Positions 342-11,970 of a stretch of 11,970 nucleotides of DNA are shown in pieces. Below the pieces are notes generated by a model. That model was given only the letters and a program-made list of their open reading frames with translations. It was not told the origin of the DNA and ran no database searches. This DNA is from Deinococcales bacterium (GTDB lineage: Bacteria > Deinococcota > Deinococci > Deinococcales > JAAFIG01). How positions within the stretch are numbered: the stretch's first letter is position 1; each line of letters opens with the position of its first letter. Location of the stretch: assembly GCA_043778225.1 (NCBI GenBank), contig JAYWGM010000105.1, positions 1-11,970 of the forward strand, in the 5' to 3' direction. A program made the translations under genes and the position numbers.

Positions 342-463
342 AAAAGACCTCCGCGTGACAGCCTAGGCTTGAAAGCTGAAGCCGGGCTATCGGTCAGATG
401 GTTTTGCTGGTCGGTCAGTTGACTCGAGTCAACCTATAAATCGTTTGGGGGCAGTACAGTATA
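342..463 (-). promoter_or_regulatory. Putative kdpF promoter (-10 TATACT at 458-463) and ~110-nt structured leader
   Basis: TATACT on the minus strand. A perfect 16-bp palindrome GTTGACTCGAGTCAAC lies at 418-433, CTGACCGA occurs twice (411-418, 390-397), and a hairpin spans 357-391 directly upstream of the SD. Confidence 0.45.
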
Positions 464-488
464 AAATTCCCCACATTGCAAATACAGT

Positions 489-1529
489 CTAGCGGTTTGA
501 TAACCCAGCTTCGTCCTCGGGGCGTTTAAGCGCCAACTGCCCACAAGCTGCTCCGGCATCGCGCCCACGCGAACGACGCACCGAAACGGGTATGCCAAGA
601 TGCTCGAGGGTGTTGTAAAACTCTTGGATTCGGGCTTCGCTCGAGGAAGTAAAACCAGAACCAGCCCATGAGTTCATTGGAATTAAATTGACATGGGCAA
701 TTAAACCGCGCAGCAATTCGGCTAACAGTTCAGCTTGCCAGAGATGGTCATTGACTCCAGCCAGCATACTGTACTCAAAAGTTAAGCGGCGTTTGCTGCG
801 GCGCTGGTATTCTCTGGCGCTCTCGAGAATGTCCTTGATGCTACTGGCATGAGCCGTGGGAATAATTTGTTGGCGGGTTTCTTCGTCGGGGGCGTGCAAA
901 GAAATTGCTAATTTAACCACCACATCCTCGGAAGCCAATTTGATGATTTGCTTGGGCAGCCCCACAGTGGATAGGGTCACACGGCGTTGGCTCATGCCTA
1001 AACCGTTTGGGTGCAATAAAATTCGCGCCGCATTGAGGGTATGGTCGTAATTCAAGAGCGGTTCGCCCATGCCCATAAAAACCAAATTACGAATCATGTT
1101 CGGTTGCCAGCCATTGTCTCGAGCCGCGTACAGCACTTGTTCGACAATTTCGCCACTGGTTAAATTGCGCCCAAAACCCATCCGCCCAGTGGCACAAAAA
1201 GCACAGCCAGCCGGACAACCAACCATCGTCGAGACACAAATCGTGATGCGATCTTGGTAGGGCATCAGCACCGCTTCCATTTGTTTGCCATCCAGCAGGG
1301 TATACAGGTACTTGGTGCTGCCATCGGTCGAGACAAATTTCTCGACCTTCAAAAAAGTGCTAAAGGCAAATGAATCCTCGAGTTGGCTGCGTGAGGCTTG
1401 CGGGATATTGCTCATCTGGCTAAATGAGCTTACACCCTGCCCAAAAACCCACTCGAGCAACTGCTTTTGGCGGTAGCCCTCGAGTGGATATTGGTCTGGA
1501 TGCAAATCGAGCAAAAAAGGCTTAGTCAT
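489..1529 (-). CDS. rlmN: 23S rRNA (adenine2503-C2)/tRNA dual-specificity methyltransferase RlmN (radical SAM)
   Basis: CxxxCxxC motif (GCPAGCAFC), MGMGEP, and C-terminal [11 protein letters not shown] with the methyl-accepting Cys. Start moved to the ATG at 1529 ([11 protein letters not shown]), which overlaps the upstream ORF by 8 nt. Confidence 0.95.
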
Positions 1530-2013
1530 ACTGCTGTTGCAATTGTAGTTCATCTACGCCGTCTGTGAAGACCAAAACGACCCGTTTATCATCGGGGTAA
1601 CGCACAAAGCGCAAGACTCGAGCCATTGGAAAATCGGTCTTGAGTTCTTCTAAAAGCGCCAAGGCAGTCTTTTTTTCTGTGCCACCAAGTGGCAAATTCT
1701 CGGCTTCTAAATGTGGTGTGTAACTGCTTGGCTTAGCAATTGGACCGCCACTGCCAGCTGGGTCGGCTGGCAATCCATCGTGGGATTCGCCTTCATTGCT
1801 CGGGGCGTGCAAACCACTTTTGAAGGACTCGAGGTCGGCAGCAAAAAAACCAGTCTCGATCACTTCACCAGTCAGCACCTCTCGTCCGAGTGCCATTTCT
1901 TCGGATAAACCAGGGAATTCACTCGAGCCAGCCGGTCTTTCTTGGGTCTCGAGTTGCACCACTTGGCTGCTTCGGACTTCGCTTGGATAATGTTGACCAT
2001 CTAATTCGATCAT
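1522..2013 (-). CDS. Hypothetical acidic protein, 163 aa
   Basis: Exactly fills the gap between the EamA gene (stop 2024) and rlmN on the same strand. An AAGG lies immediately before the ATG, too close to be a good SD. No family recognised. Confidence 0.7.
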
Positions 2014-2023
2014 GCCTTTAAGC

Positions 2024-2857
2024 CTAACACGCGCTGGCTAATGCCGCCCCACCCAAAACCAAAGCAGCCCCAAGCAGCATCTCGAGACGTGGTGTTTCGG
2101 CGATAAATGCCCATGCCAGCAGCACCGCAAAAACTGGCTCGAGGGTGCTGATTAAACTGGCTCGAGCCGCGCCAATTCGGGCAATCGAGGAATAGAGCAT
2201 TGGCAGTGCCAACAAAGTCGAAATAATTGCCATCGCAGCCACCAACCCCCAAACGGGCAGCGAATCTGGAATTCTGGTTGTGCCTGCCAATACGTTCCAA
2301 ACCGCAAAGCCAATCGCGCTACCCAACGCACCATGAGCGGTAAAAGCAAGCGGCGGAATATGGCGTTGGGTTTCGCTCAGTACCAAGTACCACCCGTACC
2401 CAATGCCCGCCATTGCGCCAAGCACCACCCCAAGCAGATTGGCATCTCGAGAACTTGGAACGCCAACAATCACCAGTAAACCACTCACTGCTAAACTCAT
2501 GGCAATCAGTTGTATTTTGCTTGGGCGCTTACCCTGCAAGGCATGAATCAGCACCACCGAAACGGGCGCAAGATACACCAACAAAGAAGCCGTCCCCGCC
2601 GAGATTCGCTCGAGTGAGGAAAAATACAACATCGTAAAGACAAAATAAAGTAAGCCAAATATAATCATCCGCAGGCGGTCACGCCAAACAAAGCCCCTGC
2701 TATAACCAGCCGCAAACAGCACCAATGCCACCAGTGCAAAACGCCAGACCAAAAGGCTGCTCGAGGCAAAACCAAATTGCTGGGTCAGTTTCCCCCAAAT
2801 GCCAAGGGTCGAAAAACAAAAAGCGCTGGTCGCCGCCAGCAGAACACCAATCCACAC
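2024..2857 (-). CDS. EamA/DMT family transporter (about 277 aa)
   Basis: About 10 hydrophobic segments in two repeats, with DMT-type motifs (SSLLVWRF, ASLLVYLAPV, RIGAARASLISTLEPVFAVLLAW). Likely start is the GTG at 2857 after AGGA, 7 nt downstream of the kinase stop. The ORF-track extension to 2971 overlaps the kinase. Confidence 0.9.
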   Translation of the reverse strand: MWIGVLLAATSAFCFSTLGIWGKLTQQFGFASSSLLVWRFALVALVLFAAGYSRGFVWRDRLRMIIFGLLYFVFTMLYFSSLERISAGTASLLVYLAPVSVVLIHALQGKRPSKIQLIAMSLAVSGLLVIVGVPSSRDANLLGVVLGAMAGIGYGWYLVLSETQRHIPPLAFTAHGALGSAIGFAVWNVLAGTTRIPDSLPVWGLVAAMAIISTLLALPMLYSSIARIGAARASLISTLEPVFAVLLAWAFIAETPRLEMLLGAALVLGGAALASAC

Positions 2858-2864
2858 TTTGTTC

Positions 2865-4358
2865 CTAGACAACCCGAATTGGAATCTCGAGCGTAAAAGT
2901 GCTGCCTTCACCCTCACCAGCGCTCTCTGCCCAAACCCGCCCGCCGTGGGCTTCGATGATGCTTTTAACAATTACCAAGCCTAAACCTGTACCTGTGCTG
3001 CGGCGCTGCTCGCCCGGTAAGCGTTGATATTTTTTGAACAGGCGCGGTAAATGGTCTGGGGCAATGCCGTTGCCTGTGTCGGCAATCGCAATCCGAAAAA
3101 GTGCGCCAGTCGTGGTCAGTTGGACATCTATTAAGCCATCATCGGGGGTGTACTTGATGGCGTTGCCAATCAGGTTGTCCAAGACTTGCTTGAGGCGCGA
3201 TTCATCGGCAATGCTCTCGAGTTTTTCGGGAGCGGTTAAATTCAGACGCTGCCCTTTGCTGGTGGCAATCACTCGGGCTTGCTCAGCAGAGGAGCGAATA
3301 ATGACGGCAATATCGGTTGGGTTTGGCTCGAGTGTAAAGTACCCCGCGTCTATCTTGGCGTAATCGAGGTAATCCACCACCAGCCGTTGGAGTTTTTCGG
3401 CAGCATCTTGTCCCACCCGCACGGCTTTGAGTTGTTCGTCGGTCAGGTTAGAAATATCGTTCTCGAGCAGGTGTTCTAAACTCAAACCAATCACATTGGC
3501 GGGGTTTTTGAGGTCGTGTGTGACCATGCTGTACAAATCGGCTTTCATGCTCTCGAGTTGCTGACGGGCAATGATGCCAGCGCGGTATTCTTTGGCTTGC
3601 TCGAGCGCGTAATAAAACTCCGAGCGGTCGCCCTCGAGTGGCAAGTCTTGTTTGGCTAAAAAGCCGTCTGCGCCAATCCGCATCGCTTCGATGGCAGTTT
3701 TGACATCGCCGGCGGCGGTCAGCATGACCACCACCACATCTTGCGAGGCTTTACGGATATAGGGCAGCAACTCGAGTCCGGTATAGTCTGGCATCTGCAA
3801 ATCGAGCAAAATCAAATCAAATTTACCGATTTCTTTGAGGCGGTCAAGCAATTCTGTGCCGTTGCGTGCTTCTTCAACTCCTGCCCCAGATTCGCTAAAA
3901 ATACGGCGCAAAGCACTGCGGACTAAGCCAGAATCGTCCACCGATAAAATACGGCGCAGTCCACCAGCTGTATCGTCGGCTTGAGGTTCAACCACTGGTG
4001 TGGGGTCAAGGTTCAGTGCGCCAAGCGGTGGAGCATACAAAAAAGCATCTTCTTCAAGGCTCTCGAGTTCGGTCTCGAGGCGGTCAAGGTTCTCGGTTGG
4101 GTCGGCGCGTTCGAGTGCCTTAAAGGTCGTGTCAAGTACCGATAAAGAAACAGGAAAGCTCATTTCAACGGCTGTTTTGGCAAGTCCAGCCAAACGATTC
4201 GCCACCCGAGCCAAATAGACAGCGCTGTTGGCTTGGGCAATTTTCTCGAGGGTTCTTGCGCCACTTTCGAGTTCGCCGAGCGGCACGGCTTGAGCGTTCG
4301 CCGAAAGGCGAGAGAGGAGGGCAGTCACTTCTTGTTGGAACGGTTCAAGGGTGGTCAC
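2865..4358 (-). CDS. Cytoplasmic hybrid sensor histidine kinase/response regulator (helical N-domain, REC, HisKA, HATPase_c)
   Basis: REC motifs (ILSVDDS, LLDLQMPD, MLTA, FLAK), H-box THDLKNP, N-box NLIGNAIKY, G1 DTGNG, G2 GTGLGL. GTG start with GAGG upstream. No TM segment. Confidence 0.92.
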   Translation of the reverse strand: MTTLEPFQQEVTALLSRLSANAQAVPLGELESGARTLEKIAQANSAVYLARVANRLAGLAKTAVEMSFPVSLSVLDTTFKALERADPTENLDRLETELESLEEDAFLYAPPLGALNLDPTPVVEPQADDTAGGLRRILSVDDSGLVRSALRRIFSESGAGVEEARNGTELLDRLKEIGKFDLILLDLQMPDYTGLELLPYIRKASQDVVVVMLTAAGDVKTAIEAMRIGADGFLAKQDLPLEGDRSEFYYALEQAKEYRAGIIARQQLESMKADLYSMVTHDLKNPANVIGLSLEHLLENDISNLTDEQLKAVRVGQDAAEKLQRLVVDYLDYAKIDAGYFTLEPNPTDIAVIIRSSAEQARVIATSKGQRLNLTAPEKLESIADESRLKQVLDNLIGNAIKYTPDDGLIDVQLTTTGALFRIAIADTGNGIAPDHLPRLFKKYQRLPGEQRRSTGTGLGLVIVKSIIEAHGGRVWAESAGEGEGSTFTLEIPIRVV

Positions 4359-4387
4359 AATCGGGCAACCTCGCTTTCTGTTGAGTT

Positions 4388-4393
4388 ATTCTA
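4388..4393 (-). promoter_or_regulatory. Putative -10 element (TAGAAT) for the kinase operon
   Basis: TAGAAT on the minus strand about 30 nt upstream of the GTG at 4358. No convincing -35 at 17 bp. Confidence 0.4.
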
Positions 4394-4400
4394 CACGCAA

Positions 4401-4449
4401 AGTATCACACAAGTCCTACATTGGCAGTATCACACAAGTCCTACATTGG
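4401..4449. repeat. Tandem direct repeat, 2 x 24 bp identical (AGTATCACACAAGTCCTACATTGG), 25-bp period
   Basis: Copies at 4401-4424 and 4426-4449 read directly from the sequence. Confidence 0.95.
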
Positions 4450-4494
4450 TGCAAAAGGCTTTTGTACAACTTCTTAAACTTGAGTCTGCCATAG

Positions 4495-4516
4495 AAAACT
4501 GACAAAAAACTGACAA
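4495..4516. promoter_or_regulatory. 11-bp direct repeat AAAACTGACAA x2, possible OmpR/PhoB-family binding site
   Basis: The reverse strand reads TTGTCAGTTTT-TTGTCAGTTTT, giving TGTCA half-sites one helical turn apart in a divergent intergenic region. Confidence 0.35.
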
Positions 4517-4797
4517 AGGCTACCGGCGGTCTCGATTAGGCTTTAATCTAAACTGTCAACAACAGAATACCCTGTTATGATAGTTAAAAAATACTGTCTG
4601 TCACAATTTTCCTCGAGTAGCTATTATTTTGCCTAATTTAGAAAAAGTCGAATTTATACTCGAAAACAAGTATCTACTTTTGTCCTACTAACTACCAGAT
4701 GTTGTGCCTATTTTGCACATACAACATCATTTTGTGCTAGTATACTCTTGTAATAAAGAAAGCGGTTTTCTTGGTTACGCAATATGCGAAACGAATC

Positions 4798-4826
4798 TTG
4801 ACAAATCATTCTGCTTGAGGCAAAAT
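4798..4826 (+). promoter_or_regulatory. Sigma70-type promoter TTGACA-N17-CAAAAT
   Basis: Perfect -35 TTGACA at 4798-4803, 17-nt spacer, -10 CAAAAT at 4821-4826, and an ATG 6 nt further at 4833. Confidence 0.6.
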
Positions 4827-4832
4827 ATGAAT

Positions 4833-5078
4833 ATGCTCATCACAGAACGCACCATTCTAAATCCGCACAAGAATACTCGAGTTCGCAGCCTTCCACCTGT
4901 CGTTGCGCTGCCAGAGCCACTGGTCAAACCGCGTCTGGCTCGAGTCACCAAGACCCATGGTTTACTGCAAAGCCTGAGTCTGCTTGGCGACCGACAGAGT
5001 TGGTTGTTGTTGGCTTTGGTGCTGATTCCAGTTTGTGGTGCGATTTATAATTTCATAACTTACGGCTTTAACCGTTAA
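4833..5078 (+). CDS. Small hypothetical protein (about 81 aa) with a basic/Pro-rich N-part and a C-terminal TM helix
   Basis: Has its own promoter and a downstream terminator. Hydrophobic stretch WLLLALVLIPVCGAIYNFI. An alternative start at ATG 4827 has GAGG upstream. The ORF-track start at 4704 lies in AT-rich promoter DNA. Confidence 0.65.
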   Translation: MLITERTILNPHKNTRVRSLPPVVALPEPLVKPRLARVTKTHGLLQSLSLLGDRQSWLLLALVLIPVCGAIYNFITYGFNR

Positions 5079-5086
5079 AAAACTCG

Positions 5087-5121
5087 AAAAACGCGGCGTT
5101 TATCCTGACGTGGCGTTTTTT
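5087..5121 (+). terminator. Probable intrinsic terminator
   Basis: Stem AAAACGCGGCGT / ACGTGGCGTTTT (one mismatch, one G-U pair) ending in a T6 run, just after the 5078 stop. Confidence 0.55.
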
Positions 5122-5141
5122 GGTTTGTTATTCTGAGCAGT

Positions 5142-6143
5142 ATGAAACCTGTTCGTATTTTTCTTGGTCTTTTGGGTCTGCTGGTGGTGCTTGGTTTGTT
5201 GGCTGGCGGTGTGGCTTTGTATATTTTTCTGCCGACCAATGCCAAAAAGCAAACCCTAGAAGTCAAATCGGGTATGAGCATTGGCACAATAGCAACCCAA
5301 CTCGAGCAGTCTGGCTTGGTTCGTAATGCCACCGCGTTTCGCTTGGTTGCCCAGTATGTTGGTACAGACCGCCGCATCCGCGAAGGCTATTACGACCTAT
5401 CGGGGCAGCAAAATATCCTCGAGATTGCCCGCACCCTTGGAAAAATCGGTCGCCCTAGGCAAATTACAGTGGCGATTCCCGAAGGCTTACGCCAAACTGA
5501 AATTGTGACGCGAATTGCCAGTAAATTCTCGAGCCTTGGCGAACTCGAGACTGCTTTTCGGCAAACCAATTTGCTAGAATTCACCAAAGGCGCACCAAAC
5601 CTAGAAGGTTTTTTGTTTCCAGCTACTTATCAGTTTCGCCCCGAAGACAACGCCCAAAGCATTGCCAAAGCCATGACCAAGCGTTTTAGTGCCGAAGTTA
5701 CACCAGCCCGTAAAACCCGTCTCGAGAAAATCGGCTTGAGTGTTTACCAATGGGTTACGCTGGCAAGCATTGTTCAAGTTGAAGCCGGCAATGCTGCCGA
5801 AATGCCGATTATCGCTGGGGTTTTCTTAAATCGGCTCAAGCTTGGTATGGCACTGCAATCTGACCCAACCATTGCTTACGGACTTGGCAAGCGCCTACCT
5901 GAACTGAGCCGTCGGGCTGGGGATTTTGAATCCACCACGCCATACAACACCTATAAAGTGCGCGGCTTAACCCCAACCCCGATTTCTAATCCGGGGACAC
6001 AAGCCCTCGAGGCAGTCTTAAACGCCAACCGCAGCAACTCGGGCGGGCAAGAATGGCTGTATTTTCTGCATGGTAAAAATGGCGAATTTAGACCAAACAT
6101 CAATTTTGAAAATCATCAGCGCGACAATGCCGAGTTTAGGTGA
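5142..6143 (+). CDS. mltG: Endolytic transglycosylase MltG (YceG family)
   Basis: N-terminal TM anchor and motifs IPEG, LEGFLFPATY, LASIVQVEA (catalytic Glu), NRLKLGMALQSDPT, PYNTY...GLTPTPISNPG, LYF. Confidence 0.95.
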   Translation: MKPVRIFLGLLGLLVVLGLLAGGVALYIFLPTNAKKQTLEVKSGMSIGTIATQLEQSGLVRNATAFRLVAQYVGTDRRIREGYYDLSGQQNILEIARTLGKIGRPRQITVAIPEGLRQTEIVTRIASKFSSLGELETAFRQTNLLEFTKGAPNLEGFLFPATYQFRPEDNAQSIAKAMTKRFSAEVTPARKTRLEKIGLSVYQWVTLASIVQVEAGNAAEMPIIAGVFLNRLKLGMALQSDPTIAYGLGKRLPELSRRAGDFESTTPYNTYKVRGLTPTPISNPGTQALEAVLNANRSNSGGQEWLYFLHGKNGEFRPNINFENHQRDNAEFR

Positions 6144-6215
6144 GTCTTTTGAACCTCGCAAAAAATGAGTCTTTTTAACCTCGTAAAAAATGAGTCTTTT
6201 GAACCTCGCAAAAAA
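6141..6215. repeat. Tandem repeat 3 x 25 bp (TGAGTCTTTTGAACCTCGCAAAAAA)
   Basis: Units at 6141-6165, 6166-6190 (2 substitutions) and 6191-6215. The array starts at the mltG stop codon and has no spacers. Confidence 0.95.
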
Positions 6216-6242
6216 ATCGAATTGCCGTAGAATGGTGCGTTT

Positions 6243-9200
6243 ATGTCCGAAGCGTTGCTGCGTACTTTTTTTGACTTAGCCACTTTTAAGCGTGGGCAAC
6301 TTATTCGCTCTCGAGTCCGAAAAGTTCAGTTAAAAGTGGCTCGAGATGGTACAGAAAGTCTGGTTGGTGTGGTTGGCGGCTCAAATAACGAAAAGTACGA
6401 TGTTGAAGTCAGCCTGACTCGAGATATAGATGGCGACCTGCAAGAACTTGAGGGTGTTTGCGATTGCCCGATGGGTTGGGATTGTAAACACACTGTAGCG
6501 CTGCTGCTCGAGGCGCTGGCACGAAATGTCTGGACGCTTGAGCCAAAAGAACGACCCGACCCGTTCGAGCGCTTAAAATTGTTGAACAGCAATCAATCCG
6601 TGGAAATCATTGCGCCTAAGGCAGAATTGGACAAAACTTTGAATACTTGGCTCTCGAATGCACCAAAAAAGAATAATTCTCAAGACACCGCCGCCAAACA
6701 AACCCTGCTTTTTTCTTTGGCGCTTAAAAATGGCTCGGTGGTCTACGAAGTCTGGAATGCTCGGCTGGGCAGTAAAGGCTGGACGGAGATTAAGCCGTAC
6801 CGACTGCCCCACAGCCTCGAGCAACTGCCCGGTTATGCCAAGCGCGACCGCGCCTTGTTGCAAGCCTTTCAAGCCACCCACAACAACCGTTATGGGGGTT
6901 CAAGCGAATTTATTCTCGAGGACACCGACCTGGTGGCATATTTGCTCGAGCGTATTTTGGCAACCGAGCGTTGTTACTGGGGAAACCCACAACACAAAAT
7001 ACTGCTGCTAAAAGGTTCGGCACGGGTGGGGACACCCACTTGGGCAATCGAGTCTAACGGTTCGCAGCGTCCGATGTTTGATACCACACCCACAAGCCAT
7101 GCGGTGCTGCCGTTTACGCCACTGTGCTATGTCGATACCGAACGTGGTGAACTTGGACAACTCGAAAGCCAACTCGAGCCAGCCGCCGCCAAGCACTTTG
7201 CCAGTTGCCCGCCAATTTTGCCCGAAATGCTTTTTGCTTTCCGCGATGCGCTGCGCCAGCGCTTTCCGACCATTCCAGAACCCGATTCGATGAATACCCG
7301 CGATATTGTGCTGCCTAGCCGCACAATCATGACCTTAAAATCGCAAAAAGCCACCCAGTCTTGGCAAGCCGACTTGCACTACGCGACCCTCGAGTTTGAA
7401 TACGGACAGTTGCGAATTCCCGAAGGCGATAAACGCGAACTGGTGTCTTTTCAAGATGGCATCTTAGAACGAATTAAGCGCAATCCCGATATGGAGCGCA
7501 ATGCGGTCATGAGTTTACAAGCCCTGAGTTTTAATAAAGCCGTGGCGAACACCATTCCCAAAGTGCAACACGCTTGGACTTTTGGGGCTGGGACAAACAC
7601 CAACGATGCGTGGCTGGATTTTTTGAACCGCTTTGTGCCGACCCTCCAAGAACTTGGCTGGACAATTCTCGAGGACAATAGCTGGGCATTTAAGATTGCT
7701 CAGATTTCGGATTGGTACGGTAGCATCGAAGATAAAAACGATTGGTTTGGACTCGAGCTTGGCGTGATTGTGGACAACAAAGAAATCAGTCTGCTGCCGA
7801 TTTTAAGTGGCATGATTGAACGCTTACCCAAAGATTTTACGCTCGAAAAACTCAAAGCCTTACCCGATAAACATATCTTTTATGCCACCCTGCCCGATAA
7901 ACGAATGTTGGCACTGCCAGCTGCTCGGGTGCGGGTGGTGCTTGGGGTGCTGCTCGAACTCTACTCCGAGCGACCCAAAGGTGCACTGCGACTGAGTATT
8001 TTTGATGCCACCCGCTTACTCGAGCTTCAAGAAGCACTGCAAGTTCGTTGGCATGGTGCAGACCGCTTGCTTGAATTGGCACAAAAACTGCGCTCGTTTG
8101 CTGGAATTGCTGCCCAAGAAGCACCTAAAAAACTCGAGGCAACCTTGCGCCCTTATCAACTCGAGGGTGTGGCATGGTTGCAATTTTTGCGCGAATACGA
8201 CTTGGCGGGGGTACTCGCTGACGACATGGGCTTGGGTAAAACGGTTCAGGCTTTGGCACATTTACTGCTCGAGCAACAGGCTGGGCGCTTAAAAAACCCC
8301 GCGATGGTGGTCATGCCAACCAGTTTAGTGACCAATTGGAAACTCGAGACCGCCCGCTTTGCGCCGAGTCTAAAGGTGGCGATTCTGCATGGGCAATCGC
8401 GTGACCACAGCGCCCTCGAAGGGGCAGATTTAATCCTTACGACCTACCCAATTTTGCTGCGCGATTTTGATAAGCTCAAAAAGAAAAAATTCCACACCAT
8501 CATCCTTGATGAAGCCCAGTACATCAAAAATGCCAAAAGCAGCACCGCCCAAGCCGCCAGTGCCTTGAAAGCCGAACACCGCTTATGTCTGACTGGCACA
8601 CCGCTCGAGAATCATCTTGGTGAACTCTGGAGCATTTACAACTTTTTGATGCCCGGTTTTCTGGGCGACGACACCAGTTTTAAGCAAACCTACCGCACCC
8701 CCATCGAGCGCGGTGGCGATACCCACCGCCGCGATGTGCTGGCTCGGCGGGTCAAGCCGTTTTTACTGCGCCGCAGCAAGACCGATGTCGCAAAAGAACT
8801 GCCCGAAAAAACCGAAATTATTGTGCCACTCGAGCTTCAAGCCAGTCAGCGCGACCTCTATGAAACCATCCGTGTGGCGGTCAGCGACCGCATCCGCGAA
8901 GAAGTGGCGAGTAAAGGTTTAGCACGTTCGCAAATTGTGGTTTTGGATGCGCTCTTGAAGTTACGCCAAGCTTGTTGTGACCCGCGTCTGGTCAAACTCG
9001 AGCAAGCCAAAAGCGTGACCCACAACGCCAAACTTGAATGGCTCAAGGAAAACTTGCCGCCGTTAATCGAAGATGGTCGTAAAGTTCTTTTGTTTAGTGC
9101 TTTTGCCTCGTTGCTTGGAAATCTCGAGCAAACAATGACCCAATTGGGCATACCATACTCTAAACTGACAGGGCAGACCAAAGACCGAGCCAAACAAATC

Positions 9201-9536
9201 AATGCTTTTCAAGACGGACAAACCAGTGTCTTTTTAATCAGCTTAAAAGCAGGTGGTGTCGGCTTAAACTTAACGGCTGCCGATACGGTCATTCATTTTG
9301 ACCCATGGTGGAATCCAGCCGCCGAAAACCAAGCCACCGACCGCGCTCACCGCATTGGGCAAACCAAAAAAGTCTTTGTCTATAAGCTGATTACCCAAGG
9401 CAGCCTAGAGCAAAAAATTCTCGAGCTGCAACAGCGCAAAGCTGAACTGGCACGCGGTATTCTCGAGGGTGGACTGAGCAGTGCCGTGGCACTGACCCAA
9501 GACGACTTAACCCAATTGCTTGCGCCTTTGGCTTAG
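6243..9536 (+). CDS. SNF2-family (SWI2/SNF2) helicase/ATPase with N-terminal SWIM zinc finger
   Basis: SWIM CDCPMGWDCKH, motif I LADDMGLGKT, II DEAQ, III LTGTPLEN, V SLKAGGVGLNL, VI QATDRAHRIGQ. Confidence 0.95.
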   Translation: MSEALLRTFFDLATFKRGQLIRSRVRKVQLKVARDGTESLVGVVGGSNNEKYDVEVSLTRDIDGDLQELEGVCDCPMGWDCKHTVALLLEALARNVWTLEPKERPDPFERLKLLNSNQSVEIIAPKAELDKTLNTWLSNAPKKNNSQDTAAKQTLLFSLALKNGSVVYEVWNARLGSKGWTEIKPYRLPHSLEQLPGYAKRDRALLQAFQATHNNRYGGSSEFILEDTDLVAYLLERILATERCYWGNPQHKILLLKGSARVGTPTWAIESNGSQRPMFDTTPTSHAVLPFTPLCYVDTERGELGQLESQLEPAAAKHFASCPPILPEMLFAFRDALRQRFPTIPEPDSMNTRDIVLPSRTIMTLKSQKATQSWQADLHYATLEFEYGQLRIPEGDKRELVSFQDGILERIKRNPDMERNAVMSLQALSFNKAVANTIPKVQHAWTFGAGTNTNDAWLDFLNRFVPTLQELGWTILEDNSWAFKIAQISDWYGSIEDKNDWFGLELGVIVDNKEISLLPILSGMIERLPKDFTLEKLKALPDKHIFYATLPDKRMLALPAARVRVVLGVLLELYSERPKGALRLSIFDATRLLELQEALQVRWHGADRLLELAQKLRSFAGIAAQEAPKKLEATLRPYQLEGVAWLQFLREYDLAGVLADDMGLGKTVQALAHLLLEQQAGRLKNPAMVVMPTSLVTNWKLETARFAPSLKVAILHGQSRDHSALEGADLILTTYPILLRDFDKLKKKKFHTIILDEAQYIKNAKSSTAQAASALKAEHRLCLTGTPLENHLGELWSIYNFLMPGFLGDDTSFKQTYRTPIERGGDTHRRDVLARRVKPFLLRRSKTDVAKELPEKTEIIVPLELQASQRDLYETIRVAVSDRIREEVASKGLARSQIVVLDALLKLRQACCDPRLVKLEQAKSVTHNAKLEWLKENLPPLIEDGRKVLLFSAFASLLGNLEQTMTQLGIPYSKLTGQTKDRAKQINAFQDGQTSVFLISLKAGGVGLNLTAADTVIHFDPWWNPAAENQATDRAHRIGQTKKVFVYKLITQGSLEQKILELQQRKAELARGILEGGLSSAVALTQDDLTQLLAPLA

Positions 9537-9581
9537 GTAACACCAGCTTAGAAGTGGCTTGTAACACCAGCTTAGAAGTGG
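9537..9581. repeat. Tandem direct repeat, 2 x 21 bp identical (GTAACACCAGCTTAGAAGTGG), 24-bp period
   Basis: Copies at 9537-9557 and 9561-9581, starting immediately after the helicase stop codon. Confidence 0.95.
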
Positions 9582-9661
9582 TGTAAATCTCGAGTGCTTA
9601 CCGCAGCCAAATTGCCTCATTTGACCCACAACGCTCACATTTTTAGACTAGAATACTGCTT

Positions 9662-10084
9662 GTGAGTATTACCCGCGACACCCGACCCGTAGACCCCGTG
9701 CAACAAGCGCAGCGTGGGCAACTCGATGCTTTGGTCAACGAGCTTCGTCAATTACACAGTATGTTGTTGGATGCGGTCAAAGCCGACTATGAAAAACTCA
9801 ATGGCAAAACCCAAGGACCATTTCATATGTTTCAATTGGTCACCAACGACCCATTTTTTCAGTGGCTGCGCCCCTTGAGCGCCATGATGGCAACCATAGA
9901 CGAAATGACTGACGAAAAACGCTTACTCGAGCGCACTGAACTCGAGCAAATTCAAAATCTGGTCGATACCTTGCTTGCGCCAACCGAACCCGCTTTTGGC
10001 ATTAACCTCGATATTCGAGCCTCGGACAGCGCCACCATTGAAGATAAACGGGCTGGAATTCTGGGTTTAATCAAAACCTTATGA
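9662..10084 (+). CDS. Hypothetical helical protein, 140 aa
   Basis: TAGAAT 7 nt before the GTG start. Protein-like sequence (LHSMLLD...YEKLNG...FQLVTNDPFFQWLRPLS...IDE) resembling a widespread uncharacterised family from memory. ATGA coupling to the next ORF. Confidence 0.8.
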   Translation: MSITRDTRPVDPVQQAQRGQLDALVNELRQLHSMLLDAVKADYEKLNGKTQGPFHMFQLVTNDPFFQWLRPLSAMMATIDEMTDEKRLLERTELEQIQNLVDTLLAPTEPAFGINLDIRASDSATIEDKRAGILGLIKTL

Positions 10085-10278
10085 CCGAGCCAGAAGTGCA
10101 GGATGATGATGCCAGTCTCGAGCAGGATGATGATGATGCCAGTCTCGAGCAGGATGATGATGATGCCAGTCTCGAGCAAGATGATGATGCCAGTCTCGAG
10201 CAAGATGATGAGACCCGTCCAGACCGAGCCACGGGAAAATCCGACCCGTGGCATGGCTTAGACGACTTCGAGGACTAG
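10081..10278 (+). CDS. 65-aa highly acidic repeat peptide ((D)DDDASLEQ x4)
   Basis: The ATG overlaps the upstream stop (ATGA). The TAG ends 1 nt before the pyrD ATG. Repeat unit lengths of 24/27 bp preserve frame. Confidence 0.6.
   Translation: MTEPEVQDDDASLEQDDDDASLEQDDDDASLEQDDDASLEQDDETRPDRATGKSDPWHGLDDFED
10099..10209 (+). repeat. Coding tandem repeat, 4 units of 24 or 27 bp: (GAT)3-4 GCCAGTCTCGAGCAR
   Basis: Directly visible. CTCGAG occurs at 10117, 10144, 10171 and 10195. Confidence 0.95.
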
Positions 10279-10279
10279 A

Positions 10280-11290
10280 ATGTACGCCCTCTTCAAGCCT
10301 TTGCTTTTTTCGCTGGATGCCGAGACAGTTCATGATCACGTGATGGGCTTACTCGAGCTTGTGGCTCGTAACAAGCCGCTGCTTGGGCTTACCGAGCGCT
10401 TTTGCCAAATCACCGACCAAAGGCTCGAGTGCATGGGTTTACATTTTCCTAATCCAATTGGACTGGCTGCCGGATTAGACAAAAATGCGCTGGCTTTGCC
10501 GATTTGGGCAGCCTTGGGGTTTGGTTTTGTCGAAATCGGCAGTATCACGGCACAGCCGCAAAATGGCAACGAGAAGCCACGGCTTTTTCGTTTCCCTCAA
10601 GACAACGCCCTGATTAACCGTATGGGATTTAATAACCACGGTGCAAAAATTGTGGCAGCGCGGCTCGAGCTTTGGCGACACACCCATGGGCAATCCAAAG
10701 TGCCAGTTGGTGTCAACCTTGGCAAAAGTAAAATCACACCACTCGAGAACGCCCCCCAAGATTACTTAGACAGCCTGCGTCGGCTTTGGGAGTATGGCGA
10801 TTATTTTGTCTTGAATGTTTCGAGTCCAAATACACCAAATCTACGGCAACTCCAAGACCGCGCCCCGCTTGAGGAATTACTGAGCACGGTCATGAATTTT
10901 GTCAAAACCCAAGTCGTACCTAAACCAATCGCCTTAAAAATCGCGCCCGACTTAACTTGGACGCAAATAGACGAAATCCTCGAGCTTGCGCTGCTGTATG
11001 GTTTAAGTGCGATTATTGCCACCAACACCACGATTGCTCGAGAAGGCTTAACGACTGCAACCACCGAAAGTGGTGGGCTATCGGGGCAACCGCTCAAAGC
11101 CCGCTCGCTCGAGGTGCTGCGCTATTTAACCAAAGTGCAAGCGCTGCCAATTATTTCGGTCGGCGGTATTGCCAGCACCCAAGATGTCCAAGAACGGCTC
11201 GAGGCAGGAGCGGCTTTGGTGCAATTGTACAGTGGCTTTATTTTTGAAGGTCCGATGCTGCCCAGTCAAATGGCTCGAGGCTTACTTTAA
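10280..11290 (+). CDS. pyrD: Quinone-dependent dihydroorotate dehydrogenase (class 2)
   Basis: Motifs NPIGLAAGLDKN, LINRMGFNN, NVSSPNTP (catalytic Ser), KIAPDL, TNTT, GGLSG, VGGI, VQLYS. GAGGA SD upstream. Confidence 0.96.
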   Translation: MYALFKPLLFSLDAETVHDHVMGLLELVARNKPLLGLTERFCQITDQRLECMGLHFPNPIGLAAGLDKNALALPIWAALGFGFVEIGSITAQPQNGNEKPRLFRFPQDNALINRMGFNNHGAKIVAARLELWRHTHGQSKVPVGVNLGKSKITPLENAPQDYLDSLRRLWEYGDYFVLNVSSPNTPNLRQLQDRAPLEELLSTVMNFVKTQVVPKPIALKIAPDLTWTQIDEILELALLYGLSAIIATNTTIAREGLTTATTESGGLSGQPLKARSLEVLRYLTKVQALPIISVGGIASTQDVQERLEAGAALVQLYSGFIFEGPMLPSQMARGLL

Positions 11291-11970
11291 GCGCCACCGA
11301 TTTTGGGCAATAAATTTGGCGGTGAAAACCCTGGCTCGAGGTTGGGTTTAGCACTTTCGGGTTCTTCGGGCAAAAATCCACCATCAAAAACCGTCGTGAA
11401 CTCTTCGCCATTTAAGGTTTCGCGCTCGAGTAGGGCAGCCACAACTCTATCCATGGCGTTTCGGTTTTGCTCGAGTAAGTGCTTGACTTTTTTGTACTGT
11501 ATTTCGATGATGCTTTTGACTTCGGCATCGATGGCTTGGGCAGTGGCATTGCTGTAGTTACGGCTTTCCGAGCCATAACCCAGATAATTTTGTGATTCCT
11601 CAATCAGTGCCACATGACCCAGCGTCTGGCTCATGCCCCACTCGGCAACCATGCGTTTAGCAATGCTGGTGGCACGTTGAAAATCGTTTTGTGCGCCGGT
11701 CGTAACTTCATCAAATTGTAGTTCTTCAGCAACCCGCCCCGCCAAAAAAACCGCGATGCTATCGAGCAGTCTGGATTTACTGTAATGCTGAGTCTCACTG
11801 GGTAACGGCATCATGTAGCCAGCCGCTCCACCACGCGGCACAATCGTCAGTTTATGCACCCTATCCGACAATGGCAACAAATGCGCCGCAATCGCATGAC
11901 CAACTTCATGGTATGCCGTGATTAACTTATCCTCGAGCAATATCACCCTCGACTTTCGGGCTGCCCCCAT
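11287..11970 (-). CDS. ftsH: ATP-dependent zinc metalloprotease FtsH, C-terminal M41 peptidase part (5' truncated by the window edge)
   Basis: TAYHEVGH zinc motif, TIVPRG, LAGRVAEE, TTGAQND, WGMS, LLERETL. Confidence 0.95.
   Translation of the reverse strand: MGAARKSRVILLEDKLITAYHEVGHAIAAHLLPLSDRVHKLTIVPRGGAAGYMMPLPSETQHYSKSRLLDSIAVFLAGRVAEELQFDEVTTGAQNDFQRATSIAKRMVAEWGMSQTLGHVALIEESQNYLGYGSESRNYSNATAQAIDAEVKSIIEIQYKKVKHLLEQNRNAMDRVVAALLERETLNGEEFTTVFDGGFLPEEPESAKPNLEPGFSPPNLLPKIGGA

Follow-up and report, generated by a model that had tools for sequence, protein, structure and literature searches.

The highly iterated palindrome HIP1 (GCGATCGC) and the alternate highly iterated palindromes (HIPs) of cyanobacteria are short palindromes rich in guanine and cytosine (GC) that occur in genic and intergenic DNA throughout a lineage. 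HIP words are stated to be 15- to 300-fold over-represented (Elhai 2015, PMC4390886; Xu, Lawrence and Durand 2018, PMC5861425), and each abundant HIP is described as accompanied by its methyltransferase, for which a repair model has been proposed (Elhai 2015, PMC4390886). Xu et al. 2018 (PMC5861425) describe the conservation of HIP1 and a 10–90-kb periodicity, Kamoku and Nielsen 2024 report that methylated HIP1 raises the transformation of Synechococcus PCC 7002 up to >100-fold, and Rodriguez-Cruz et al. 2026 correlate HIP1 abundance with natural-transformation genes and propose an uptake mark. Here we describe a word of this kind, CTCGAG, in the Deinococcota. It was noticed in an 11,970-base stretch of DNA (contig JAYWGM010000105.1, C105 in our numbering; the whole stretch is called the window) from an uncultured 'Deinococcales bacterium' (GCA_043778225.1, hereafter G000). 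The first-pass annotation of the window likened it to HIP1, and HIP1 is the closest known parallel to what proved to be a genome-wide and lineage-wide property. CTCGAG shares with HIP1 the short GC-rich palindrome, the genic and intergenic occurrence across a lineage, a conservation better than that of control words, and the existence of exceptional relatives without the word; an excess of at least 15-fold, genic and intergenic occurrence beyond codon constraint, and conservation above controls, as for HIPs, were all found. It differs in its phylum, in having six letters rather than eight, in its density (about 6 sites/kb, compared with the roughly 1/kb stated for HIP sites by Elhai 2015, PMC4390886), and in that no cognate methyltransferase common to the genomes carrying it was found. 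CTCGAG is absent from the main text of Elhai 2015 (PMC4390886). No published report of its hyper-abundance was found in the literature searched, which covers subscription journals thinly.

Other known systems offer partial likenesses. The uptake signal sequences (USS) of Pasteurellaceae and DNA uptake sequences (DUS) of Neisseriaceae are asymmetric words of 9–12 bases, present at about 1/kb and with a measured uptake bias; they accumulate by molecular drive in naturally transformable, restriction-rich bacteria, shape peptides and are scarce in imported DNA. CTCGAG is likewise dense in coding and non-coding DNA across its family, shapes peptides and is scarce in imports, but it is a six-base palindrome with uninformative flanks, and ComEC is found in carriers and a non-carrier alike. 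Chi is an asymmetric, strand-skewed, few-fold enriched word that is read by RecBCD or AddAB and marks DNA for recombination over degradation. CTCGAG resembles it as an over-represented self word, yet AddAB-like genes do not track the trait. The excess of CCWGG that arises through Dcm/Vsr very-short-patch repair in E. coli stays well under 2-fold and comes with a depleted T:G neighbour; it is to our knowledge the only established case in which repair makes a methylase site more frequent. CTCGAG, by contrast, is in 27-fold excess, its neighbour is not depleted, and Vsr was found in none of the 19 family genomes. Finally, CTCGAG is the word recognized by the XhoI/PaeR7I restriction-modification systems, which are present in the same order; neither the nuclease nor a close homologue of the linked methylase was found in the 19 family genomes. 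XhoI-type sites are normally avoided, as they are in Deinococcus, while the word is hyper-abundant in the family.

CTCGAG in the source genome

The G000 assembly (4.03 Mb in 107 contigs of up to 154 kb, 48.7% GC, 89% completeness) contains 24,877 copies of CTCGAG, i.e. 6.17/kb, against 931 expected from base composition (26.7-fold), so that the signal extends far beyond the window. CTCGAG is by far the commonest hexamer of the genome, and the runners-up are the same word shifted by one base. Because CTCGAG dominates its own 5-mers, the observed-to-expected ratio (O/E) under a maximal-order Markov model is uninformative for it and was discarded as a null; base-composition, dinucleotide-shuffle and codon-shuffle nulls were used instead. 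Genes were called by a greedy longest open reading frame (ORF) rule rather than by a gene finder, giving 3,585 genes that cover 89% of the DNA. With these calls, coding DNA has 6.18 sites/kb and intergenic DNA 6.20/kb (2,705 sites in 436,505 non-coding bases). The coding sites are distributed over the three frames as 13,039, 4,481 and 4,668, where 20 genome-wide synonymous-codon shuffles expect 1,665, 390 and 322 (O/E 7.8, 11.5 and 14.5). An 8- to 14-fold excess therefore survives a protein-preserving shuffle in every frame, and this null is conservative because it retains codon usage inflated by CTCGAG itself. At the codon level, CTC makes up 74.7% of Leu codons before Glu but 9.2% before other residues, and GAG makes up 78.5% of Glu codons after Leu but 22.7% elsewhere, with CTCGAG encoding 13,039 of the 18,854 Leu-Glu pairs (69%).

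The excess is specific to the six letters. Flanking positions are nearly uniform and carry almost no information, which rules out a longer hidden motif. Single-substitution neighbours stand at 0.15–1.41 times base expectation, with the transition neighbours highest; CTTGAG/CTCAAG, the neighbours derived from a T:G mismatch, are at 1.41 and thus not depleted.

One rival account of such an excess is a by-product of codon usage, amino-acid composition or the avoidance of other words. Many alternative words are indeed strongly avoided in G000, and in f2, one of the groups compared below, a mild excess (CTCGAG at 46.5% of Leu-Glu pairs, 37.7% expected from codon frequencies) is partly codon usage. 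For G000 this account is refuted: intergenic density equals coding density, all frames remain enriched under the protein-preserving shuffle, the Leu-Glu codon pair is extremely biased in the family (odds ratios below), and Leu-Glu pairs had non-avoided synonymous alternatives at hand, such as TTAGAA (1,198 copies) and CTTGAA (997).

CTCGAG in the window

CTCGAG occurs exactly 80 times in the window, from 423 to a last copy that starts at 11932 (6.7/kb). Dinucleotide-preserving shuffles (200) give 1.6 on average and at most 6, in keeping with the first-pass count of about 80, far above expectation. The sites read as CTC GAG (Leu-Glu) in 57 cases, as xCT CGA Gxx in 11 and as xxC TCG AGx in 5, and 7 fall outside ORFs of at least 100 amino acids. 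Within the ORFs, 74 sites are observed against 9.2 (maximum 19) in 500 synonymous codon shuffles that preserve every protein and the codon usage of each gene. The off-frame examples that had been singled out at 6310, 6340, 6418 and 5528 all lie in the frames given for them, and the sites named as non-coding at 423, 4612 and 9589 all lie outside ORFs of that length; the remaining four non-ORF sites belong to a 27-bp tandem repeat (10102..10211, below). Single-mismatch neighbours had been judged far rarer by eye; the 18 words occur 0–11 times each and 53 times in sum, compared with 80 for CTCGAG itself. The gene content is ordinary housekeeping: an rlmN-like gene, an EamA transporter, a hybrid histidine kinase, YceG, an SNF2/SWIM helicase, dihydroorotate dehydrogenase and FtsH. 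The features on which the text relies are as follows.

423..11937: CTCGAG array, 80 copies across the entire window
423..428: CTCGAG outside ORFs of at least 100 amino acids, downstream of the rlmN-like gene
489..1553, minus strand: rlmN-like gene with 7 CTCGAG, used as orthologue probe for named relatives and for the tree
2865-4358, minus strand: hybrid histidine-kinase gene
4612..4617: spacer CTCGAG, flanked by the hybrid histidine-kinase gene and the ORF at 4704-5078
6243..9536, plus strand: SNF2/SWIM helicase gene with 22 CTCGAG (6.7/kb), used as orthologue probe
9589..9594: spacer CTCGAG, following the SNF2/SWIM helicase gene
10102..10211: 27-bp tandem repeat (4.2 copies, 93% matches) with a CTCGAG in each unit, at 10117, 10144, 10171 and 10195

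Origin of the sites and effect on proteins

The word has altered the proteins. Leu-Glu has the highest O/E of all dipeptides in G000 (2.33), while Glu-Leu stands at 0.97; across the family Leu-Glu is at 2.2–2.3, and elsewhere at about 1. Sixty-four G000 proteins were each aligned to their best match among 17 Deinococcus loci. In the aligned columns, Leu-Glu occurs 346 times in G000 and 137 times in Deinococcus, and Glu-Leu 168 and 157 times; per protein, G000 has more Leu-Glu in 49 cases, fewer in 1 and equal numbers in 14. The Glu of CTCGAG-encoded pairs is poorly conserved relative to Deinococcus (87/255, against 591/1,031 for other Glu), and the Leu less affected (146/255, against 1,217/1,923 for other Leu), so the usual change replaces the residue after Leu, mostly Ala, Asp, Ser, Gln, Arg or Thr, by Glu. 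Origin by six-base insertion was rejected, as none of 32 exact two-residue insertions is Leu-Glu, and alignment gaps are no commoner opposite CTCGAG sites than opposite other dipeptides. The sites arise by point substitution and not by insertion of the word.

The pressure has limits. In the closed family genome G013, the 23S ribosomal RNA (rRNA) gene (2,933 bases) contains 1 site, while its 1.5-kb flanks contain 8–12; the gene was not found in the assemblies of G000, G006 and G011, and the rRNA comparison rests on G013. In the two loci of that genome (L204, L205), 5–6 CTCGAG crowd into ~125 bases directly downstream of the 23S gene (locus 4652-4775), and 3 lie within 100 bases upstream of it. 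All 19 CTCGAG-free gaps longer than 1.5 kb in G000 are low in GC (0.31–0.47), as expected of imported DNA.

Equal coding and intergenic density, excess in all frames and altered proteins bear out the initial view that the signal acts on DNA and is not a protein constraint. The results show a word-specific, DNA-level, lineage-wide force which acts through point substitutions and wins out over synonymous and, in part, non-synonymous constraint. We consider it very probable, and in large part shown, that a force on the six-base word itself creates and retains CTCGAG substitution by substitution, placing CTC-GAG at ~70% of Leu-Glu pairs and turning residues after Leu into Glu, being too weak to prevail against rRNA constraint and too slow to have reached recent imports.

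Assembly check and conservation among relatives

An assembly artefact was excluded by Logan contigs built separately from two public runs (2021), which show 0 differences to the window over pieces of up to 5,868 bases; both runs come from a single study, and one of the two samples may be the source. Another run of the same study contains next to none of the words. In addition, 12 loci of named metagenome-assembled genomes (MAGs), deposited in several submissions, have similar densities of 4.5–8.4 sites/kb.

DNA alignments of the window with same-genus relatives (72–82% identity; the relatives are not independent samples) show that sites are kept in 108/160 in-frame, 14/34 frame-1 and 11/22 frame-2 comparisons, against 24–25% for control hexamers in the same frames. 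Where a site is not kept, the orthologous word differs at 2–4 letters in 61/83 cases. At Leu-Glu pairs conserved within the family, relatives carry CTCGAG at 72–77% of the positions where G000 has it and at 30–51% of those where G000 lacks it, while Leu codons elsewhere are identical between family members in 30–36%. Since CTCGAG accounts for 64–69% of all Leu-Glu pairs in family genomes, most of this apparent conservation reflects a persistent force and not the inheritance of particular sites.

A co-occurring strain was seen in one run (X2). It differs from the window by 18 differences within 157 bases (3537-3693, in the histidine-kinase gene) with identical flanks, which looks like a recombined patch. 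The patch affects the word as follows.

3600..3638: two CTCGAG (3600 and 3633) missing from the strain variant, by C>A and C>T at the first letter

Distribution across the Deinococcales and the phylum

The named relatives are uncultured 'Deinococcales bacterium' MAGs. Loci retrieved with the SNF2 probe from 18 other family genomes (five genera, 45–64% GC) carry 4.4–9.7 sites/kb, and CTCGAG is hyper-abundant in 19/19 family genomes at 43–64% GC, confirming that the property belongs to the lineage, as had been proposed. By contrast, 17 Deinococcus loci have 0–0.14/kb, i.e. 0–0.4 times base expectation, which amounts to avoidance. The odds ratio for the Leu-Glu codon pair CTC-GAG, relative to codon use elsewhere, grades the groups:

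Same genus (g1 relatives): 103
Other family genera: 26
Two low-GC MAG loci (7/37 pairs): 15
f5 g13: 4.7
f4: 3.2
f2: 1.4
f5 g9: 0.5
Deinococcus: 0.3

We then surveyed 364 genomes of the phylum for two CTCGAG copies 21 bases apart, with the pattern read backwards serving as control; nothing stated here depends on G327, an unpublished genome in the survey. The 19 family genomes gave 83–317 matches each with 0 in the control, and 111 Deinococcus genomes gave 0–4. Within f5, counts were 66–109 in g26, 107–217 in g27 and 16–157 in g13, with low controls. Hyper-abundance outside the family was found in G042 (g19, 203 matches) and in G156 (238) and G157 (334), both of g23, while their congener G158 gave 0. 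Sampled sequence agrees with the survey:

G156: 10.3 sites/kb; CTCGAG in 72/80 Leu-Glu pairs (G156 and G157 together)
G157: 7.1 sites/kb; Leu-Glu counted with G156
G042: 3.6 sites/kb at 69% GC; CTCGAG in 50/60 Leu-Glu pairs
G158: 0.30 sites/kb (1.2 times chance); CTCGAG in 5/72 Leu-Glu pairs

A tree of RlmN (36 rows, one gene) leaves a trichotomy of the family (support 100/100), g19 with g23 (98/94) and Deinococcus (85/85), and places G158 as the long-branched sister of G156 and G157. Because G042, G156 and G157 carry the word and G158 does not, the trait extends beyond the family and has arisen or disappeared inside one genus; over the order as a whole it forms a gradient. G158 is a small genome (2.3 Mb in 5 contigs), and its rlmN match has an internal TAG and a second partial copy.

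Avoidance of other palindromes

Restriction sites are normally avoided, as the first-pass annotation remarked, and G000 fits this for the other words: 41/64 palindromic hexamers are below 0.2 times expectation, i.e. avoided more than 5-fold. GGCGCC (3 copies), GACGTC (1), AGGCCT (1), GGGCCC (1) and CTTAAG (8) are nearly absent, and among shorter palindromes GGCC has 131 copies in 4 Mb and GATC reaches 0.13 times expectation. Some non-palindromes, counted on both strands, are also nearly absent (e.g. GACGCC 11, GAGCAC 49). The purged words differ among same-genus relatives, e.g. CTTAAG at 0.01 and 0.82. The median O/E of the 63 palindromic hexamers other than CTCGAG is:

G000: 0.07
Other family genera: 0.19
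G156 and G157: 0.19
Same-genus relatives: 0.33
Deinococcus: 0.51
f5: 0.58
G042: 0.66
G158: 0.79
f2: 0.80
f4: 0.92

Non-palindromic hexamers have medians of 0.78–0.94. All lineages in which CTCGAG is in more than 20-fold excess also purge other palindromes hard, and lineages without such an excess do not, G042 being a partial exception; the coupling rests on at least two phylogenetic contrasts, with small samples for g23.

Methyltransferases, nucleases and repair genes

Among several possible agents, the initial proposal named methylation-directed repair or mutation bias from an orphan methyltransferase. A model of this kind would have a CTCGAG or TCGA methyltransferase without a nuclease mark the word, with methyl-directed repair, replication control or uptake then favouring it. 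Precedent speaks for it: methyltransferases accompany the abundant cyanobacterial HIPs (Elhai 2015, PMC4390886), the effect of HIP1 on transformation depends on methylation (Kamoku and Nielsen 2024), and a hot-spring metaepigenome preprint has CTCGAG and TCGA methylated in one host-phage 'Group 2', which is a lead only. CTCGAG enzymes also circulate in the order, and the avoidance of the word in Deinococcus suggests exposure to XhoI-type nucleases. An XhoI-family nuclease (PF04555) is intact in G021 (L095) and G033 (L094), where it lies beside a convergent 340-aa beta-class methylase, and is broken in G031. Despite this nuclease, G021 and G033 do not avoid CTCGAG (1.5–1.9/kb, 2.4–2.5 times second-order Markov expectation). 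The family differs. The nuclease was found in 0/19 family genomes, and the XhoI-linked methylase has motif-level matches but no close homologue among them; its close homologues (63–73%) are restricted to G033, G027, G022 and G038. Co-occurrence of the enzyme with the enrichment fails in the other direction as well, because G022 and G038 possess the homologue and are unenriched (Leu-Glu codon-pair ratio 0.56).

We then inventoried DNA methyltransferases by five Pfam families (PF00145, PF01555, PF02086, PF02384 and PF07669; the first four of these in G042 and G156-G158). G000 has 23 such genes. An NCBIfam scan of 20 of the 23 indicated no specificity, and specificities are not readable from sequence; methylation by an unrecognised or non-orthologous enzyme is possible. 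Five other family genomes were compared (G006, G011, G010, G012 and the closed 5.09-Mb genome G013), which span four other genera and that of G000. None of the 23 candidates has a partner of at least 50% identity in more than 1 of these 5 genomes. Cross-genus pairs among the five are confined to G011-G013, apart from one 41% pair between G013 and G010, and whole families are missing from carriers: G010 (91% complete) has no PF00145 (C5) match and G013 no PF01555 (beta-class) match. No methyltransferase orthologue is common to the carriers compared. The candidate of a conserved methylase of ~500 aa was set aside, as the gamma-class genes of this size in G010, G011 and G013 have a mutual identity of at most 41% and precede an ORF of ~375 aa, as in type I systems. 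A C5 methyltransferase is common to G000 (L076, contig C33), G006 (L148) and G157 (L234) at 59–80% identity; since it adjoins an HNH nuclease, it belongs to an ordinary restriction-modification pair.

Outside the family, matches to PF01555/PF00145/PF02384/PF02086 are:

G157, carrier: 2/5/7/2 (16 in all)
G042, carrier, 96% complete: 0/1/3/0
G156, carrier, 58% complete: none
G158, non-carrier: 0/0/0/1 (weak)

In G042, a single 1,328-aa gamma-enzyme frame accounts for two of the PF02384 matches, the third (the 372-aa N6_Mtase match) was rejected as an RMKL-like RNA methyltransferase, and the family genomes show no counterpart of the C5 enzyme. Several restriction-modification genes of G157 recur in family members at 51–69% identity, none of them universal. 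The on/off pair speaks for methylation, in that the non-carrier G158 has lost nearly all DNA methyltransferases whereas its congener G157 has 16 matches.

Repair genes offer little for the model: Vsr was found in 0/19 and MutH in only 2/19 family genomes, and the T:G-derived neighbours are not depleted, as described above. The absence of a shared methyltransferase, of Vsr and (mostly) of MutH weakens the methylation and repair models, and the G157/G158 contrast keeps them alive. Neither the enzyme nor the repair route first proposed was borne out by these gene inventories. We regard a methylation-linked origin as unlikely, though ahead of a nucleoid-binding site and a Chi-like signal.

Spacing of the sites and a possible chromosome-structural role

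CTCGAG sites in G000 are spaced at a mean of 160.6 and a median of 117 bases. Distances below 20 bases are scarce, those of 50–200 are in excess (1.22-fold) and those of 400–800 in deficit (0.78-fold). Counts in 2-kb windows (n=1,962) have a variance/mean of 1.22, near Poisson, and only 18 hold two sites or fewer. Helical or other short periodicity was rejected, the sole period below 400 bases being 3. At the shortest distances, CTCGAG-N-CTCGAG (spacing 7) occurs 123 times, with N uniform and 102 copies coding, compared with 30–53 for spacings 8–11; spacing 6 is absent, consistent with the near-absence of GAGCTC (24 copies).

These distances bear on an architectural explanation, in which an abundant dimeric nucleoid protein binds CTCGAG and weak selection acts at each of ~25,000 sites. 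The strict six-base palindrome suits a symmetric dimer, and the even density, the mild deficit of long gaps and the excess of intermediate ones are what such a protein might produce. We know of no nucleoid protein that binds CTCGAG, and none was found in this analysis. Moreover, the 2.9-kb rRNA gene (with its single site) and several kilobase-long imported islands do without the word, and the purging of other palindromes alongside the hyper-abundance is left unexplained. For HIP1, a chromosome-structure role has been argued from conservation and long-range periodicity (Xu et al. 2018, PMC5861425). Overall, we judge an architectural role of CTCGAG improbable.

A possible role in DNA exchange and recombination

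Over-represented words that spare self DNA are established for Chi, and CTCGAG could in principle be a Chi-like signal readable on either strand, halting end-resection and loading RecA at breaks of either orientation. The imported islands without CTCGAG would fit. Known Chi sites, however, are asymmetric and far less enriched, and the candidate readers are distributed the wrong way: AddAB-like genes (PDDEXK_1, PF12705) have no match in the carriers G000 and G010 and no pair in G158, while strong pairs are present in Deinococcus G028 and G040, which avoid CTCGAG. The HIP1 preprint of Kamoku and Nielsen 2024 invokes a Chi-like effect, but for CTCGAG this seems very unlikely.

The explanation that we favour, tentatively, is that CTCGAG confers a transmission advantage in DNA exchange or recombination. 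A conserved putative protein would read the symmetric word on self DNA, and fragments or alleles richer in CTCGAG would be taken up, spared or recombined more often; alternatively, gene conversion between chromosome copies would favour CTCGAG-rich alleles. CTCGAG would then accumulate by molecular drive, like DNA uptake sequences and as proposed for HIP1, and the same DNA traffic through many restriction barriers would purge nearly all other palindromes. Besides the palindrome medians, the 16 methyltransferase-family matches of G157 as opposed to the one weak match of G158 would fit a link between the word and exchange under restriction. The strict symmetry of the six bases suggests a protein reader that is itself symmetric, and a single conserved cognate methyltransferase appears not to be required. 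Deinococcus and Thermus are naturally transformable and polyploid. We rank exchange or recombination first because it accounts for hyper-abundance and restriction-site purging going together and agrees with the most recent HIP1 data; methylation, a nucleoid site and a Chi-like signal follow in that order, and the remaining probability goes to other causes. In its boldest form, which we consider possible but somewhat more doubtful, an undescribed protein family would recognise self DNA by CTCGAG with no cognate methyltransferase involved. The word would be switchable within one genus (~10 sites/kb in G156/G157 as opposed to chance in G158), would co-evolve with palindrome purging, and together with it would be the trace that very frequent exchange of DNA leaves in restriction-rich, polyploid Deinococcales.

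Several observations weigh against the exchange explanation. No reader protein for CTCGAG was found in this analysis. Known uptake sequences have 9–12 bases and are not palindromic, and palindromes of six bases are rather what dimeric type II enzymes recognise. ComEC (PF03772) is present in G013, G157 and G042, and the non-carrier G158 has it too (none was found in G156, 58% complete), so that the on/off contrast is not due to a lost uptake channel; nor does the distribution of AddAB-like genes follow the trait. Near-Poisson spacing with no period but 3 adds no support. Positional conservation among relatives is largely explicable by equilibrium word frequency and gives no proof of selection on sites, and divergence data cannot separate selection from biased conversion. 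In the recombined-looking patch of the co-occurring strain, 2/18 differences hit CTCGAG, which is about chance. Lastly, the coupling with purging is imperfect, as G042 writes 50/60 Leu-Glu pairs as CTCGAG yet shows mild palindrome avoidance (0.66) and few methyltransferases.

Other features of the window

The 27-bp tandem repeat sits between the ORF at 9662-10084 and the dihydroorotate dehydrogenase gene, upstream of the latter. Its minus strand reads as a repeated TGIIILLE peptide within a 100-aa ORF, which is probably no gene. Two intergenic 25-bp tandem repeats lack CTCGAG (4401-4449, 2.0 copies; 6141-6215, 3.0 copies). Positions 1-400 have a depth ~10–13 times that of the rest of the window in both runs, and 22-170 shows many joints and loose ends, with one 40-base stretch having 3 exact copies in the genome; this part is a repeated element at the contig end. 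Rfam and transfer RNA (tRNA) scans of the window found no Rfam family and no tRNA.

Implications

HIP1 has so far been treated as a cyanobacterial peculiarity, and its purpose has been debated for three decades. That another phylum has an iterated palindrome of its own, independent and six-fold denser, makes the phenomenon general, and here it is accompanied by CTCGAG-avoiding Deinococcus relatives and by a same-genus on/off pair. Hyper-abundance without a methyltransferase lineage found common to the carriers bears on the leading models of HIP1. In practical terms, CTCGAG is a strong marker of native as opposed to imported DNA in carrier genomes, and it distorts the codon and dipeptide statistics that annotation tools assume. 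The pair of G156/G157 and G158, together with the graded series across the order, offers a route to the responsible gene by comparison of gene content, and the moderately enriched genera may include cultured strains. If CTCGAG is indeed a self-recognition word, the on/off pair would make its reader gene, and by analogy the HIP1 problem, directly findable.

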